IMG/VR virus record: IMGVR_UViG_3300029105_000019
DNA: 40,963 bases
Origin: a virus
Strand: one strand, 5' to 3'
This document shows positions 6,436 to 40,963 of this stretch, piece by piece (position 1 is the stretch's first letter; every line of letters begins with the position of its first letter). The position numbers and the translations under genes are program-made. Under the pieces are notes generated by a model that saw only the letters and a program-made list of their open reading frames with translations, searched no databases and was not told where the DNA came from.

Positions 6436-6512
6436 GCCGCTATAGCTCAATCTGGCAGAGCCGCCGTCTTGTAATCGGCAGGTCGTAGGTTCAAATCCTA
6501 CTGGCGGCACCA
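6436..6512 (+). tRNA. tRNA-Thr (anticodon UGU), CCA encoded
   Basis: Manual cloverleaf. Acceptor is gccgcta/tggcggc. D arm is gctc-aatctggca-gagc. Anticodon arm is gccgt-CTTGTAA-tcggc with a T-T mismatch at 31-39. Variable loop is aggtc. T arm is gtagg-ttcaaat-cctac. Discriminator is A followed by CCA. Confidence 0.85.
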
Positions 6513-8510: not shown

Positions 8511-8881
8511 TGCCTGTAAACGATTTCACAAAATCCACCGTGATGGAGAATTTCACCAAGAAGTTCTGCTTCATGGTCAAAAAGCTGGTATCGGACGGTC
8601 TGTTTGGCTCTACCACCACATGGGAGGACGGAATGGAGTTCCTCGCCATCGAGCGCCACGACCAGACCATTGAAGCGCAACAGGCAGAGCAGCAGGGCAC
8701 GGCGTCCACCTACTCACTCTATGTGGATAAGGGCATCAAGCTGGCCCCCTTCGACTGCATCAAGCGGCTGGAGGACGGCCAGACCTATGAGGTGACGACC
8801 GCGAGCAGCGACAAGATTTCCCCCGCCGAAAGCGGGATGAACCTTGCCGTTGTGCAGTGCAAAAAGGTGGTGCTTTCCTGA
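8510..8881 (+). CDS. Putative head-closure/head-tail joining protein
   Basis: The ATG at 8510 overlaps the upstream stop (TAATG), with ggagga 7 nt upstream. The track ORF starting at 8495 extends into the upstream gene. Confidence 0.55.
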   Translation: MPVNDFTKSTVMENFTKKFCFMVKKLVSDGLFGSTTTWEDGMEFLAIERHDQTIEAQQAEQQGTASTYSLYVDKGIKLAPFDCIKRLEDGQTYEVTTASSDKISPAESGMNLAVVQCKKVVLS

Positions 8882-9258
8882 TGGGCGCAGAAGAAGCCAT
8901 TACCACGGCGCTGAACAGCTTTTTCACCCTGTTCAGCATCCCTGTATATCCGGAGGATTTCGTGCCGCAGGGCGCTTCTTTGCCCTATCTCACGGTGCGG
9001 CCGGTCATCCCAAAGGGGCTTGACGAGAGCAGCACATTCCATGCCCGGCTGTGGTATCCGGTGGACGGCGGCAAACTCCCCATCATTCGTAAGACCGATG
9101 AACTCCGCGCGGCCCTTGGCGATGGACTGACCATCGAGTGCGAGGGCGGCGCGGTCCTTTTATGCGCAGGCAGTCCGTGGGCGCAGCCAATGGACAACCC
9201 ACCGGAAAAATACCTGTGCACATACCTTAACTTTGACGTCACATCCTTCGTGGTGTGA
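8881..9258 (+). CDS. Putative tail-completion/terminator protein
   Basis: The ATG at 8881 overlaps the upstream TGA. The N-terminal pattern ...FSIPVYPEDFVP....LPYLTVRP resembles DUF3168-type tail components. Assignment rests on that pattern and on position. Confidence 0.5.
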   Translation: MGAEEAITTALNSFFTLFSIPVYPEDFVPQGASLPYLTVRPVIPKGLDESSTFHARLWYPVDGGKLPIIRKTDELRAALGDGLTIECEGGAVLLCAGSPWAQPMDNPPEKYLCTYLNFDVTSFVV

Positions 9259-26352: not shown

Positions 26353-26408
26353 TGGAGCAGGATACGGGACTCGAACCCGCCGCCTACTGCTTGGGAAGCA
26401 GTCGCTAC
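26353..26408 (-). other. attP core: 3' 56 nt of a tRNA-Gly(CCC) gene (anticodon arm to CCA), no 5' half
   Basis: The reverse complement is gtagcg-actgc-TTCCCAA-gcagt-aggcg-gcggg-ttcgagt-cccgt-atcctgc-T-CCA. No matching 5' acceptor strand (gcaggat) or D arm lies upstream. It is adjacent to the integrase gene. Confidence 0.75.
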
Positions 26409-26465
26409 TTGCAATAATAAACGGTATAGCGTTAAATAAATGTGTGGTGCTAGATATTTGCTAGA

Positions 26466-27605
26466 CTATTGATTAAACTTTTCCATTTCCTCTTTGAGAT
26501 ATTTTGCATCGTGTTCGGTATAATAATTGGCAGTTGTGGAAAAATCTGCATGTCCCATAATGGCCTTAACGGCTGTAGGTTCGGCTTTTCCTTCAACCAG
26601 ACGGGTTGTAGCCGTTCTGCGCATTGTGTGAGGAACGGCTTCCTCAGAAATTCCACAGCGTTGCATAAGGATTTTGAATGCTTTTTCAACTCCGCTGTCA
26701 CTGCGCTTTTTACCCTTTCGTTTTGGCGGCAAAAGCAAATCGCTTCCAATGCTATCTACCATCCATCCCGCCAGAATCATTTTTATTGGTTCCAGGACCG
26801 GTATAGTTCGCTCACGTCCAGCATCGCTTTTTTCGCCGCCAATGATATACCCGTTCTGCAAATCAACATCTTCACGCCGAAGCGTTAAAAGTTCATTGAT
26901 ACGCATACCTGTATAATACAAAACCATTGCAATCTGTGCAATTTCGTGCATATCGTCTTGTCGGTCAGATGCAATTTTTTGGATTCTGGCAATTTCGTCT
27001 TTTGAGATCACAACTCTTTTCTTTTTCTTTTCGGATGGAAGTTTTAACTCTTCCGCAAAGTTGTGAGATATTATACCGTTTCCCATAGACCACTTACACA
27101 ACTGGCTAAACAGTTGCTTTTGCTTTTCGCACGATGATCTTGACAGTCCTTCATTCACAAGATTGTCAATGATCCGCTGATAATCTGCGGTTACAAGGTC
27201 CCTGATTTTGAAGTCCCAAAGTGGTGCAGCTTTTTGGTATGCCCATGTATAGCTGTATTTGCCATCGTCGCCAAGGTTCTGATAATGTGTCTCGCTCCAT
27301 TTTTCGTATACGTCCGAAAATGTATACTTGAGCTTTGTTAGGGGCCTGTTTTGCGAGTTGTACGCATCCAGAGCTTGGACAGCTTCACCAGGAGTTTCAT
27401 ATGTTCCAAGCACTTCACGTTTTGCCGTAAGGGCTACGTATGGCCTTGCTCTGGTTCCGCACATTTTGTACACACTGCCGCTGCCCTTTGGGCGGCGGCG
27501 TTTTTTTCTTTGCGCAGGCGGTGCGGTCTCTGGCTGACGCTTGCCACACCATGGGCAGAATGCAGCGCCGTCCGGGATCTCTCGCTTGCATCTGATGCAG
27601 TTCAT
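26466..27605 (-). CDS. int: Tyrosine integrase with N-terminal zinc-ribbon
   Basis: The N-terminus is MNCIRCKREIPDGAAFCPWCG. The C-terminal catalytic region includes ...TGMRINELLTL..., HTMRRTATTRL and GHADFSTTANYY (R..HxxR..Y pattern). Confidence 0.9.
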   Translation of the reverse strand: MNCIRCKREIPDGAAFCPWCGKRQPETAPPAQRKKRRRPKGSGSVYKMCGTRARPYVALTAKREVLGTYETPGEAVQALDAYNSQNRPLTKLKYTFSDVYEKWSETHYQNLGDDGKYSYTWAYQKAAPLWDFKIRDLVTADYQRIIDNLVNEGLSRSSCEKQKQLFSQLCKWSMGNGIISHNFAEELKLPSEKKKKRVVISKDEIARIQKIASDRQDDMHEIAQIAMVLYYTGMRINELLTLRREDVDLQNGYIIGGEKSDAGRERTIPVLEPIKMILAGWMVDSIGSDLLLPPKRKGKKRSDSGVEKAFKILMQRCGISEEAVPHTMRRTATTRLVEGKAEPTAVKAIMGHADFSTTANYYTEHDAKYLKEEMEKFNQ

Positions 27606-38889: not shown

Positions 38890-39382
38890 CGCAGACGCGC
38901 CGAAAACAGAGGACCCCCGCGCACTGGCAGTGCGGCGATATTTTGAACGCCTGCCCAGAATGAGGTCTCTTATCTTGCAGCAGAAGGAGCGCATCGCAGA
39001 CCTCAAGAACGCAGCTACAACGACTACTTCCAGCGTATCCGGTGCGTCCGGGCGCTCTGGCGTCAGCGATAAGGTCGGGAACAATACCGATGCCGCGATG
39101 GACACCGAAAGGCATCTGCACGAGATGAAATGCCAGTACGCCGAGATGCAGAAAGAAGCCATCGACGTCGCTTATCTCCTCAACGCGGACCCTGCGTCCA
39201 TCAAGCGCAGCCGGTGCATCACGCTCTGCTATGTGGAGGGAAAGACCAGGGCCGCCGCCGCCGGAGAGGTCGGTTATTCAAACGCGCGGACGGTCTCCAC
39301 TGCCATTTCGGAGGGCTTTCGTCAGCTGGCAGAGATATGGACGGATACACCGTTCTGTGATTTTGACAGTTTTGCACAATAA
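38867..39382 (+). CDS. Late-gene activator candidate: sigma-70 region-4-like HTH protein (ArpU/RinA/DUF1492-like)
   Basis: The ATG at 38867 follows aggaaaggag. The C-terminal RCITLCYVEGKTRAAAAGEVGYSNARTVSTAISEGFRQL is a region-4-type HTH. It is located just upstream of the packaging region on the circle. Confidence 0.55.
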   Translation: MIRTWTSDADAPKTEDPRALAVRRYFERLPRMRSLILQQKERIADLKNAATTTTSSVSGASGRSGVSDKVGNNTDAAMDTERHLHEMKCQYAEMQKEAIDVAYLLNADPASIKRSRCITLCYVEGKTRAAAAGEVGYSNARTVSTAISEGFRQLAEIWTDTPFCDFDSFAQ

Positions 39383-39552
39383 TTCGTGGCACTTTTCGAC
39401 AGTGGACATCATCGACACCTGAGCGGAATCGGTGGTATTGTAGTAGTATCGGCAGAGCCGAAAAGGCCAACCGATGCAGTTCAGCCCCCGAACATTCCGG
39501 CCCTGTGCTGTCCGTAGGTACAGGTCAACAACGTTTCGCGGGCTGCTTCTAT

Positions 39553-39656
39553 GCGAGATTTTGGAACGGCTCCATTCACAGGGCGGCGGCTCTGAGTGTC
39601 CGGGGGTGGGCGCGCACCTCCCTCTCCGCGTGGTTCGACTCCACGGTTTCGCACCA
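39553..39656 (+). ncRNA. tRNA-like 3' module (T arm + acceptor + CCA) without a canonical anticodon arm
   Basis: The 3' part is cgtgg-ttcgact-ccacg-gtttcgc-A-CCA (39629-39656). A possible 5' partner is gcgagat at 39553 (with G-U pairs) or gcggaat at 39423. A sliding search of the 54 nt between the D-like arm (tgga-acggc-tcca) and the T arm found no 5-bp/7-nt anticodon hairpin. Confidence 0.35.
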
Positions 39657-39773
39657 GATGGCGCATGGACTCATCCCCCACAAAGCTGCACGCTTAACCT
39701 CCCGTGCCACGAGAGAAAGCTTTGAATCCCTGAGGGTGTGGGTAGACTTCCCGACGGGATGTGCGTCAAACAA

Positions 39774-39802
39774 CAGCCCTGGCGGAGAACCAGGGCTGTT
39801 TT
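39774..39802 (+). terminator. Terminator-like hairpin inside the RNA island
   Basis: A perfect 9-bp stem cagccctgg/ccagggctg, 7-nt loop, then TTTT. Confidence 0.65.
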
Positions 39803-39807
39803 ATATG

Positions 39808-39876
39808 GCCGCCTGAGCGCAGTTTGGAGCGCGGCGCGTGTGTGTAGACACGGCTGGTTCGATTCCAAGGGCGGCG
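39808..39876 (+). pseudogene. Degenerate tRNA-like element
   Basis: The acceptor gccgcct/gggcggc and the D arm gcgc-agtttgga-gcgc are good. However, the anticodon hairpin cgtgt-GTGTAG-acacg has a 6-nt loop, and the T stem has only 3 bp around ttcgatt. Confidence 0.45.
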
Positions 39877-39882
39877 TTTTAT

Positions 39883-39958
39883 ATTCCCGTAGCTCAAGTG
39901 ATGGAGCAGCGGTCTCCAAAACCGCAGGCTGCAGGTTTGAGCCCTGCCGGGAATGCCA
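39883..39958 (+). tRNA. tRNA-Trp (anticodon CCA), CCA encoded
   Basis: A perfect 76-nt cloverleaf. Acceptor is attcccg/cgggaat. D arm is gctc-aagtgatg-gagc. Anticodon arm is gcggt-CTCCAAA-accgc. Variable loop is aggct. T arm is gcagg-tttgagc-cctgc. Discriminator is G followed by CCA. Confidence 0.9.
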
Positions 39959-40065
39959 GACTTTGCATGACCGGGGGACGGCATGCAGAGAGTAGCGGGG
40001 CATTCGGCCGCGAAAGTTCCGGATGCAGCGGCTTTGTGTACGACAGGCAAAGCTGCTTATTATAT

Positions 40066-40201
40066 GCCGCCATAGCTCAATTGGCAGAGCGCCGCCCATT
40101 TAAGGCGGGACAACGTTGGTGACACCATGGGAACATCACTGCACAGCCAACCACTGCGCACATCCATTCCGTGGGTGCTGGTTCAAATCCAGCTGGCGGC
40201 T
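40066..40201 (+). ncRNA. tRNA-like gene (paralog of the tRNA-Thr scaffold) with CAUUUAA anticodon loop and a 68-nt insertion at the variable-loop position
   Basis: Acceptor is gccgcca/tggcggc. D arm is gctc-aattggca-gagc. Anticodon arm is ccgcc-CATTTAA-ggcgg. A 68-nt insertion occupies 40109-40176. T arm is gctgg-ttcaaat-ccagc. The discriminator is T and no CCA is encoded. Confidence 0.5.
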
Positions 40202-40260
40202 CATTCGATTTTGACCGTTCGGGTTTCCGGGCGGCTTTTATTTTACAGGGAGGTGAGCAG

Positions 40261-40963
40261 ATGGCACGGAGAAAGAAAGCAATGGACTTTTCTTCCCTCG
40301 ACCTAAACCTTGATGCACTGGGAGACTGGGGAGGCGACGAGGAAAAGGCCGAGAAAGAGTTCATCCGCGCTGCAAAGCTGAACCTCTCCCCGGTCACATG
40401 GGACAACGCAGAAGCGGCAGCGGACGCGGTGGACTACGACAAGGATTATTTTGCGCTCCTAAGTGGGCGCTTTATTTTTGGCGACTTCATCGAGGCGCTG
40501 GTCTACAAAAAAGAACTGCTGCCGCACCGGGTATACATCACAACACTGGGCATGAGCCGGGAGAACATAGACAGCATCGTCAACATTGCCGGGTATCTGG
40601 GCTGCGAGCAGCTGAACCTGATCGTGTCCAACTACTTTGTGGCAATGGAGCGGGCAAAGCTGGTGCCCTACATGATCTCCCAGTTTACTGGGCAGCATAT
40701 CAACGTTGCTGTTCTGGCATCGCATTGCAAGATTTGCCTGATCGAGAGTGACAAGGGCAATCTGATCATCATGGGCAGCGCAAACCTGTCCAGTTCCAAC
40801 AACGTGGAGCAGATCATGCTGTTCCATGACGACAAGCTTTTCCGCAAGATCAAGACGCTGCTGAACGGCATCATGAAAAAGTTCTGCATCCTGCGCGGAT
40901 ACAGCGGCAAGACGATTTTTGAGAACAACACCAACAACACCGGAAAAAAGGCTTTTGAAGCCG
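40261..40963 (+). CDS. PLD/HKD-superfamily protein (single HKD-like motif), 5' part; continues at 1..171 (242 aa total)
   Basis: gggaggtg RBS before the ATG at 40261. The motif HCKICLIESDKGNLIIMGSANLSSSN (nt ~40723-40785) resembles HxK(x)4D(x)6GSxN, but with Glu at the Asp position and a longer spacer. The ORF is open to the window end. Confidence 0.7.
   Translation, partial: MARRKKAMDFSSLDLNLDALGDWGGDEEKAEKEFIRAAKLNLSPVTWDNAEAAADAVDYDKDYFALLSGRFIFGDFIEALVYKKELLPHRVYITTLGMSRENIDSIVNIAGYLGCEQLNLIVSNYFVAMERAKLVPYMISQFTGQHINVAVLASHCKICLIESDKGNLIIMGSANLSSSNNVEQIMLFHDDKLFRKIKTLLNGIMKKFCILRGYSGKTIFENNTNNTGKKAFEA
40819..40963 (+). repeat. Terminal overlap, right copy (identical to 1-145)
   Basis: Same comparison as for 1-145. 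Confidence 0.97.

Follow-up and report, generated by a model that had tools for sequence, protein, structure and literature searches.

Why would a phage keep a gap of ~880 bases that encodes one sound tRNA, several units that merely resemble tRNAs and no protein? The gap lies at positions 39383-40260 (878 bp) of a viral stretch of 40,963 nucleotides (IMG/VR record IMGVR_UViG_3300029105_000019), the whole of which we call the window, and is flanked by a gene for a 187-aa protein and by a PLD-like or endonuclease-like gene. An original prediction, made from the bare letters, described it as an RNA island and offered four options for its aberrant units: decaying tRNA copies, decoys for tRNA-targeting host nucleases, processing scaffolds or a novel structured RNA. 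Comparison with related phages leads us to reject the first and to favour the last two. All eight items that the prediction listed are present at or near the places where it put them. Read 5' to 3' on the plus strand, on which all its elements lie, the island is an RNA-gene cluster made of a promoter-like site, a structured RNA (A), a tRNA-like unit (E1, occupying what we call slot 1), a second structured RNA (B) with a terminator, a further tRNA-like unit (E2), tRNA-Trp, a third structured RNA (C), a tRNA-shaped unit (E3) and a closing terminator. The spacers between the tRNA-like units, in which only hairpins had been noted, are the conserved structured RNAs A, B and C.

The usual view of tRNA genes in phages is that they serve codon supply or make good the loss of tRNAs that host defences have destroyed. 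The module described here, which occurs in a large clade of temperate phages of the human gut, may represent a third use: the tRNA shape is kept, decoding is abandoned and the units are embedded in an operon of structured RNAs. Our reading, to which we give a probability of about one half, is that a temperate phage of gut Clostridia carries here a conserved operon of RNA genes only, which has its own sigma70-type promoter, and that the tRNA-like units punctuate the transcript of this operon.

Results

To follow the island among relatives we used loci from a search with the upstream protein (12 IMG/VR loci), from two scans for exact E1 and E3 patterns (~145 further viral contigs from the human gut) and from GenBank (3 loci). 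The module is present in more than 130 IMG/VR human-gut phage contigs. When the fetched loci were searched part by part with BLAST, a 21-nt leader in front of E1 was found in 108, RNA B in 104, the B terminator in 101, E2 and E3 in 133 each and tRNA-Trp in 138. In GenBank phages the module occurred in only three unannotated human-faecal scaffolds, the other tRNA-Trp matches being unrelated actinophages, and a scan of 185,579 representative genomes with E3 gave chance 18-mer matches only, none extending past 24 nt. In loci that had not been collected through E3, E3 is the most conserved element of the island (95.7% identity to the window), followed by tRNA-Trp (91.9%), E2 (90.0%), B (86.0%) and E1 (76.6%). 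Since the cluster recurs in well over 100 related phages, the module appears from these comparisons to be a conserved functional RNA and not decayed tRNA debris. The rejection of decay holds more generally because E1, E2, tRNA-Trp and E3 are retained even where the activator-like protein encoded upstream is only 38% identical to that of the window, and because their helices stay paired through compensatory changes. Covariation across relatives, whose absence the original prediction had tied to simple pseudogene debris, is present.

The absence of a credible open reading frame, as first described, stands up to comparison: between 39383 and 40260 no conserved frame was found, only mechanical ones. 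Among relatives slot 1 measures 71-107 nt, RNA B 148-156 nt and RNA C 115-147 nt; these differences are not multiples of three, so the mechanical frames are not conserved reading frames, and the substitutions in the island are compensatory within RNA helices.

E1 (39553-39656, 104 nt), whose structure is supported by an alifold consensus, pairs GCGAGAT with GTTTCGC in an acceptor of 7 bp, forms the T arm CGTGG-TTCGACT-CCACG and ends in A73 and CCA. In place of an anticodon arm it carries a long 9-bp hairpin with a GGCG cap, to which is added a 7-bp extra arm (GGGGGTG/CACCTCC), and an anticodon loop of 7 nt is absent. E1 is neither called by ARAGORN nor matched by the Rfam tRNA model, even at E<=10. 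The ~230-nt self-complementary stretch that had been thought to run to 39656 thus divides: its T arm, acceptor and CCA are real and belong to E1, and the remainder is the promoter-like site and the separate RNA A. In relatives slot 1 follows the conserved leader and holds at least five interchangeable tRNA-like types of 71-107 nt, among them a form of 75 nt that lacks the D arm, forms of 71 nt, and longer ones (102-107 nt) that have an extra arm. All of them start with GCGA, end with UCGC-N-CC(A/G) and have a GGTTCGAYTCC T arm, everything between being divergent, and a 7-nt anticodon loop was found in none of the slot-1 types examined. The 12 stacked pairs of the acceptor and T minihelix, in 22 distinct versions, are paired in 97% of cells, where extraction had demanded at least 6 of 7 acceptor pairs and had not selected for the T stem. 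Changes on both sides occur in 7 of the 12 pairs, a number reached by 0 of 500 shuffles, and slid controls gave 21-50% pairing. From 13 long-type sequences RNAalifold recovered the acceptor and the T arm together with two hairpins, one of them of 9 bp with a loop of 4-8 nt. The terminal CCA, which had been counted as a feature of the first element, is not conserved: many relatives have CCG, and the most frequent ending is ACCG. Judged from these alignments, selection on E1 is limited to the acceptor/T minihelix and an NCC tail. In one relative (L013, 3762-3838) slot 1 scores 47 bits as a tRNA and would pass for a good one but for its anticodon loop of 8 nt, CUAUUGAA, in which ARAGORN reads the four-base anticodon AUUG.

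E3 (40066-40201) scores 50.2 bits against the Rfam tRNA model despite an insertion of 66 nt. Its core is complete, with acceptor, U8, a D arm with G18G19 and the T loop UUCAAAU. The original prediction had taken it for a paralog on a tRNA-Thr scaffold with an insertion; the tRNA body and the insertion are borne out, and the anticodon arm, CCGCC-CAUUUAA-GGCGG, is not that of a tRNA-Thr. Its loop reads UUU with A instead of U at position 33. The window does hold a second canonical tRNA, a tRNA-Thr(UGU) at 6436-6512 among the head genes and distant from the island, whose acceptor, D arm and T loop are closely like those of E3. Directly 3' of the anticodon arm of E3 is a 13-nt linker, GACAACGUUGGUG; the insertion (40110-40175) lies in the variable region and takes in most of this linker, the remainder of the insertion being a 10-bp variable-arm helix (40122-40132 with 40167-40176) with a C/A-rich loop of 34 nt as its cap. 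ARAGORN does not call E3, no CCA is encoded, and the fold has a z-score of -2.5 against shuffles.

Two types of E3 could be distinguished. The type of the window, E3a, is represented by 80 unique sequences with 97% mean column identity, in which the cloverleaf and the 10-bp variable-arm helix are paired in 99.6% of cells. The T-stem pair 114-126 is U-A in 54, C-G in 19 and U-G in 7 sequences and never C-A; the acceptor pair 5-131 is U-G, C-G or U-A; the variable-arm pair 66-103 is G-U in 69, A-U in 6 and G-C in 5. E3b (24 unique sequences) has a different and longer distal variable-arm domain and agrees with E3a in its tRNA body, in the loop CAUUUAA, in the linker GACAACGYUGGUGA and at the foot of the variable arm. 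Between the two types the pair 64-105 changes from G-C to A-U, and within E3b the pair 66-104 is G-C, C-G or U-G; in one E3b copy the anticodon stem carries a compensatory A-U, and another copy, in L025, has three changed acceptor pairs that are all still paired. The CAUUUAA loop is invariant in nearly all of ~105 unique E3 sequences, and no insertion-free allele was found in IMG/VR. Deviant copies consist of an acceptor mismatch in L005 and 15-nt deletions in L009 and L019. Because A stands at position 33, where tRNAs almost always have U, decoding by E3 is unlikely; on these alignments its most likely role is that of a tRNA-scaffolded RNA with a specific binding partner. The discriminator base is A, U, G or C among E3a sequences, which argues against a fixed synthetase or T-box partner.

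Two ideas on the E3 insertion were discarded. As an antisense RNA the loop finds no target in the phage genome beyond chance (best duplex -38.4 kcal/mol; shuffled loops -30.8 to -38.3). A pseudoknot GUUGG/CCAAC within E3 is contradicted by a hypervariable position and by G50A variants, the G50-C58/A50-U58 co-variation being equally explained by a C58-G110 to U-G change in the variable-arm helix. Within the same loop, GCGCACAUCC (40157-40166) could pair with GGAUGUGCG(U/C) of the 3' strand in RNA B (39757-39766), the complementarity extending over 9 nt plus a wobble in the window and over 10 nt in the commoner B variant; the chance expectation within the island is ~0.02-0.08, which makes the match only marginally unlikely, and it lacks covariation support. 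In L025 (~8800-8960, minus strand) an E3b-type element with a shortened D loop that lacks GG occupies the usual tRNA-Trp position, between an E2-like unit and an RNA C-like region. On the opposite strand of the window, 40059-40087 resembles a promoter (CTGCCA, a 17-nt spacer and TATAAT; 10 of 12 positions) that lies in the E3 D loop and ATTATA leader and would drive antisense transcription into RNA C. In many relatives (L009 4340-4745, L012 4440-4850 and ~60 other loci) E3 is followed by a cassette of a 75-aa open reading frame, without a PHROG match, and a canonical tRNA. These cassette tRNAs, Lys(UUU), Met(CAU) and Thr(UGU), are built on one scaffold (GCCGCTTTAGCTCAG...AAGCGGC) and differ across loci in the anticodon arm alone; the tRNA-Lys of L009 has a 2-nt loop deletion and is labelled 'Stop(UUA)' by ARAGORN.

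The tRNA-Trp(CCA) at 39883-39958, predicted to be perfect, is canonical, being the sole ARAGORN call within the island and scoring 58.2 bits with Rfam; it was identified in 140 of the loci fetched. E2 (39808-39876) lies 6 nt upstream of it. The degenerate tRNA-like unit that had been placed here is a real structure conserved in relatives, with a 7-bp acceptor (GCCGCCU/GGGCGGC), a 4-bp D stem in the D arm GCGC-AGUUUGGA-GCGC, whose loop contains GG, and a T stem of 3 bp closed by the loop UUCGAUU (TTCGATT in DNA). It has neither a variable loop nor CCA, and a variable hairpin with a 4-9-nt loop takes the place of the anticodon arm. In 135 loci E2 occurs in 47 unique versions whose acceptor and D stems are 96-100% paired and mostly invariant; the GG of the D loop and the T loop are kept, and the middle hairpin has three unrelated sequences, all of them pairing, with a GT repeat of variable length in its loop. 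E2 is missing from a few relatives (L029, L030) and does not match the Rfam tRNA model even at E<=10. Supported by conservation and not by covariation, it appears to be the weakest functional candidate of the island. The similar T-rich TATAT leaders noticed in front of the three downstream units are present and conserved.

RNA A (39448-39552; fold z-score -2.25 for 39403-39552) contains two hairpins, one at its 5' end (39448-39475) and one further in (39501-39524), and a long-range helix that pairs 39482-39493 with 39533-39545. The 3' strand of this helix is the leader CGTTTCGCGGGCTGCTTCTAT (39532-39552), which abuts E1 and is 95-100% identical in 108 loci. The helix is kept in other upstream types, where the 5' strand differs and stays complementary, and shows a compensatory change from G-C to A-U (CCAGAACGG / CCGTTTTGCGG). 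A consensus scan placed a sigma70-like promoter at 39412-39441, with TCGACA, an 18-nt spacer and a TG-extended TATTGT. In every upstream type a TAAAAT, TATTGT or TAGAAT hexamer, often TG-extended, lies 6-12 nt upstream of the first RNA A hairpin, and the promoter function is plausible on this basis. In most relatives (L021, L052, L065 and others) RNA A carries, ~60 nt upstream of the leader, a CU-rich tract, UUUUCCUCCUUUUCU, which resembles the 3' end of 16S rRNA and whose reverse complement, AAAGGAGGAAAAUG, is like a ribosome-binding site with a start codon; the RNA A of the window does not have it.

RNA B (39657-39807, ~145 nt; fold z-score -2.6 for 39657-39806) was aligned from 57 unique sequences. 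Its helix P1 (39660-39666 with 39759-39767) shows pair types GC 30, GU 21 and AU 6; P2 (CAAAGCT/AGCTTTG) has two compensatory pairs between the two main variants; P3 (39688-39707) is an invariant 5-bp hairpin whose loop, CUUAACCUCC, contains the anti-Shine-Dalgarno-like AACCUCC; and P4 (AUCCC/GGGAU) shows CG 28 and UA 28. The 9-bp terminator hairpin reported at 39774-39802 is present and extends to 11 bp at 39772-39800, where it is followed by TTTTATAT (as RNA, UUUUAUAU) and shows pair types CG 35 and UA 17. Its loop (39783-39789) occurs in both orientations, GGCGGAGAACC and GGTTCTCCGCC, on an unchanged stem (L006, L075, L079, L103, L130, L136), which amounts to an inversion polymorphism of the hairpin loop.

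RNA C (39959-40065) has the strongest fold, with a z-score of -5.7 and 0 of 200 shuffles folding as well. The hairpins proposed after tRNA-Trp are real, and there are three of them, not two: HP1 (39961-39991), HP2 (40000-40026) and HP3 (40027-40057), the last terminator-like and followed by UAUUAUAU. HP2 has a conserved 8-bp stem and the loop CCGCGAAAGUU, which contains C-GAAA-G; in 137 loci it occurs in 30 unique versions with C-G/U-A and G-C/A-U exchanges, some of them having GUAA in place of GAAA. For HP1 and HP3 several unrelated sequences occur among the phages, and every one forms a hairpin.

We compared the island with known RNA classes. Only tRNA-Trp and E3 match as tRNAs in Rfam, where no other family appears at threshold, and ARAGORN calls tRNA-Trp alone; the gathering score of RF00005 is 29 bits, and E3 reaches it only with its 66-nt insertion. 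A canonical anticodon loop (7 nt, U33, purine 37) belongs to tRNA-Trp alone among the island units, and compensatory upkeep of acceptor and T helices is seen in E1 and E3. For A, B, C, E1 and E2 no Rfam family matched (4227 families, at the gathering threshold and at E<=10, with the island and one relative), nor in the same scan did any ribozyme, intron, Y RNA-like or large ornate phage RNA; a permissive scan of 39300-40300 added only a 16-bit tRNA-Sec match at 39808-39875. That match does not make E2 a tRNA-Sec: RF01852 requires at least 47 bits, E2 scores 16.0 (E=4.6), its L052 counterpart 18.6 and slot-1 type E 21.2, and no UCA loop is present. Transfer-messenger RNA (tmRNA) was likewise rejected, as neither the ARAGORN tmRNA search nor any Rfam tmRNA family at E<=10 gave a match, E1 has G-C and E3 has C-G as third acceptor pair instead of the G3-U70 of tmRNA, and a stop codon terminates none of the frames of the E3 insertion. 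An intron in E3 does not account for the insertion, which lies in the variable region, matches no Rfam intron family, is at 66-85 nt too short for group I and has no insertion-free IMG/VR allele; the intron mode of ARAGORN gave an implausible 'tRNA-Val'. Suppression or stop recoding finds no suitable anticodon in the window, where the lengths of open reading frames are normal in code 11 and terminase, portal and integrase are intact. A role of the island as attP, pac or another DNA site was set aside too, the attP-like tRNA-Gly lying at 26.4 kb and the island units having both acceptor strands, 12 kb from the integrase.

The island lies between genes of which the assignments are weak. The upstream 187-aa protein weakly matches phage transcriptional regulators or activators (PHROG 36/248). 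Downstream, an intrinsic terminator (40215-40244; terminator scan and sequence reading) closes the island, and from its T run to the ATG at 40261 of the PLD-like or endonuclease-like gene, so named from weak Pfam PLDc_2 and PHROG 16945 matches, there are ~16 nt that include the ribosome-binding site GGAGG. The next genes, at the start of the window, are TerL, portal and head genes. In relatives the gene after the island is PLD-like, ParB-like or TerS-like, and this variation means that the island has no fixed protein partner.

Discussion

How could these units work together? Each structured RNA abuts a tRNA or tRNA-like unit and leaves no room for a promoter between them: the 3' helix strand of A stops 7 nt before E1, B starts at the base after the NCCR of E1, and C lies between tRNA-Trp and E3. 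RNase P, RNase Z and the CCA-adding enzyme have the acceptor/T minihelix as their minimal substrate (RNase P review PMC11143913). Given the direct abutment, cleavage by RNase P and RNase Z would release A, B, C and the tRNA-shaped RNAs. In the mechanism we propose, a single primary transcript starting near 39448 would carry A, B, C, tRNA-Trp, E1, E2 and E3; host RNase P would cut the 5' ends of the tRNA and tRNA-like units, and RNase Z or 3' exonucleases, with the CCA-adding enzyme, would act at their 3' ends. Cleavage would thereby free A, B and C with defined ends, and the tRNA-shaped pieces would gain tRNA-like stability. As selection on E1 is confined to the minihelix, E1 would be essentially just a processing signal. 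E3 would go beyond a signal, as a tRNA body presenting an invariant non-canonical loop, a conserved linker and a long structured variable arm. The CCUCC-type loops of B, and of A in most relatives, suggest pairing with ribosome-binding sites, where they would bind Shine-Dalgarno sequences.

The closest parallel we know is found in organelles. Plant mitochondrial t-elements are processing signals for RNase P and RNase Z (PMC1920247). Like the tRNA-like island units they have a non-canonical cloverleaf with an intact GGTTCRANYCC T arm and an acceptor-like stem, do not decode and adjoin other transcripts, whose ends they define (PMC1920247). A structure of this type, with a conserved T arm motif, an acceptor-like stem and a non-canonical body, is seen in slot-1 types A-E and in E2. 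The t-elements, however, flank mRNAs in organelles, whereas here the setting is a phage, the flanked units are small structured RNAs and cleavage is predicted only. Among the T4 tRNA genes there are the stable RNAs known as species 1 and 2. The T4 operon resembles the island in that shared precursors are cut into tRNAs and additional small stable RNAs (PMC11143913), as we propose here, and its closely spaced pairs recall E2 and tRNA-Trp; RNase P processes dimeric T4 tRNA precursors as well as the C4 antisense RNA of phages P1 and P7 (PMC11143913). T4 is nevertheless a virulent coliphage with eight decoding tRNAs, while the island has one decoding unit, the others having no anticodon loop, and the two are unrelated in sequence. 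Were the punctuation model true, phages would use tRNA-processing enzymes as a general RNA maturation machinery, as happens in organelles.

Several points weigh against this model. We infer the promoter, the co-transcription and all cleavage sites, along with every downstream function. Many loci were gathered with E1 and E3 patterns, so the apparent conservation at the pattern sites is inflated, and the covariation is largely between few sequence types or lineages and stems from few independent events. RNAs B and C have terminator-like hairpins of their own, and a downstream tRNA is for this reason not strictly needed for their 3' ends. E2, with its conserved D arm and 3-bp T stem, is a poor fit to a minimal RNase P substrate, and E3 must have a second function since its invariant loop, linker and full core exceed the needs of a processing signal.

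A rival reading is an anti-defence role, in which E3, and perhaps E1 and E2, would be decoys or competitive inhibitors of tRNA-cutting host nucleases, for example of one directed at tRNA-Lys(UUU), where the tRNA-shaped body would bind the nuclease and A33 or the missing anticodon would block productive cleavage. The E3 loop CAUUUAA differs from the Lys loop CUUUUAA solely at position 33 and is near-invariant, the whole tRNA core is conserved, and the swapping of Lys, Met and Thr anticodon arms in the post-E3 cassette is the pattern expected of an arms race with anticodon nucleases. There are precedents, as tRNA-Lys is a known target in phage defence (PMC11464382, PMC10264068), a T5 tRNA-Lys variant resists the AriB nuclease of PARIS (PMC11464382) and changed anticodon loops occur in phage tRNAs (PMC10264068). 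Such resistant tRNAs resemble E3, with its Lys-like UUU loop, in their altered anticodon stem-loops; yet they are functional tRNAs that still decode and replace the cleaved host tRNA, and not non-decoding decoys, whereas E3 with A33 and a variable arm of 66-85 nt is an unlikely decoder. Nothing in the sequence accounts for such an arm on this reading, and the hypervariable hairpins at the anticodon position of E1 and E2 would not be tolerated in a decoy for an enzyme that reads the anticodon. We hold this role, attractive as it is for E3, to be doubtful. An unusual decoder (for suppression, frameshifting or recoding), or a charged carrier for non-ribosomal aminoacyl transfer or T-box manipulation, is very improbable. 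The 'Stop(UUA)' tRNA of L009, the four-base anticodon in slot 1 of L013, the invariant first four acceptor pairs and A73 of E1, an acceptor end that we take to resemble that of tRNA-Leu, and the intact elbow and acceptor of E3 could be read in this way. But in code 11 the genes of the window look normal and give no hint of in-frame stops, an anticodon loop of 7 nt is lacking in both E1 and E2, E3 departs from the near-universal U33 by its A33 and has a variable discriminator base, and the 'suppressor' of L009 is a tRNA-Lys with a deletion in its loop.

A conservation at the level of DNA or transcription must also be considered, namely that the island is a late-operon leader, a terminator array under the upstream activator or antiterminator like PR'-tR' of lambda, with the odd units as tolerated passengers. 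Late transcription crosses a leader region in lambdoid phages, and in Stx phages tRNA genes lie in the equivalent Q-PR'-late region, which favours the idea. The island has three terminator-like hairpins and sits between the activator-like gene and the packaging genes TerL and portal; with ~16 nt between the final T run and the next ATG, late-gene transcription probably also has to cross it. A role in DNA leaves the compensatory changes outside the terminators (in acceptor, T, variable-arm and small-RNA helices) unexplained, and attP lies elsewhere, beside the integrase. We regard a leader function as improbable by itself; it is compatible with a punctuated RNA operon and no replacement for it. 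As to decay, with pseudo-tRNAs left as neutral debris next to tRNA-Trp, one may cite the shortened T stem of E2, its microsatellite-like GT loop of varying length and its absence from a few phages, or chimeric and mismatched copies such as slot 1 of L136, the E3 acceptor of L005 and the E3 deletions of L009 and L019. Helices that remain 97-99.6% paired while both sides change, an E3 that is more conserved than the functional tRNA-Trp, and slot-1 types that diverge except in the minihelix, which neutral decay would not have spared, leave it hardly any likelihood.

The RNA-only operon with punctuating units remains the reading that we prefer, and a bolder extension of it can be put forward only tentatively. 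E3 may be a new class of phage tRNA mimic that combines a full tRNA body, a non-decoding Lys-like loop with A33 and a large variable-arm domain, acting in trans as a nuclease inhibitor or decoy or as a tRNA-scaffolded regulatory RNA, and made together with the punctuated A, B and C, whose anti-Shine-Dalgarno loops would reprogramme host or phage translation. An extra helix between the anticodon and T arms is found in class II tRNAs (Leu, Ser, Tyr, Sec), as in E1 types A-C and E3; class II variable arms, though, have 3-9 bp and 3-5-nt loops, while in E3 a linker of 13 nt is followed by 10-12 bp and by a distal domain of 34 to ~60 nt. A tRNA-like body gives stability and processing by tRNA enzymes to an attached functional RNA in the TMERs of murine gammaherpesvirus-68 and in the recombinant 'tRNA scaffold'. 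The former are eukaryotic RNA polymerase III transcripts, and the latter is artificial and carries its insert in the anticodon arm, unlike E3 with its insert in the variable arm; E3 may thus be a natural tRNA scaffold that presents another RNA domain. Beyond E3, the module offers at least five unannotated RNA families (A, B, C, slot 1/E1-E2 and E3) with alignments and covariation that are ready for Rfam-type curation. To our knowledge almost nothing has been reported on RNA-based phage-host conflict in gut Clostridia, for which the module could serve as a test bed.

Other features of the window

The phage is temperate, as a tyrosine integrase and a helix-turn-helix repressor are encoded at 26.5-28.2 kb. 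The closest cultured TerL is that of Blautia phage Montmirail (47% identity), with Blautia and Clostridium phages at 42-47%; because these are the nearest cultured relatives, the host is probably a gut member of Clostridia. Directly downstream of the integrase gene (26466-27605, minus strand) lies the 3' two-thirds of a tRNA-Gly(CCC) (26362-26415, minus strand), with the anticodon arm ACTGC-TTCCCAA-GCAGT, the T arm and ATCCTGC-T-CCA and without the 5' acceptor strand. By its sequence and position this fragment appears to be a typical attP core, and it could point to the identity of the host. A 123-aa open reading frame at 37795-38166 matches only the first ~100 of 247 positions of PHROG 757 (DNA methyltransferase) and may be a truncated or split gene.

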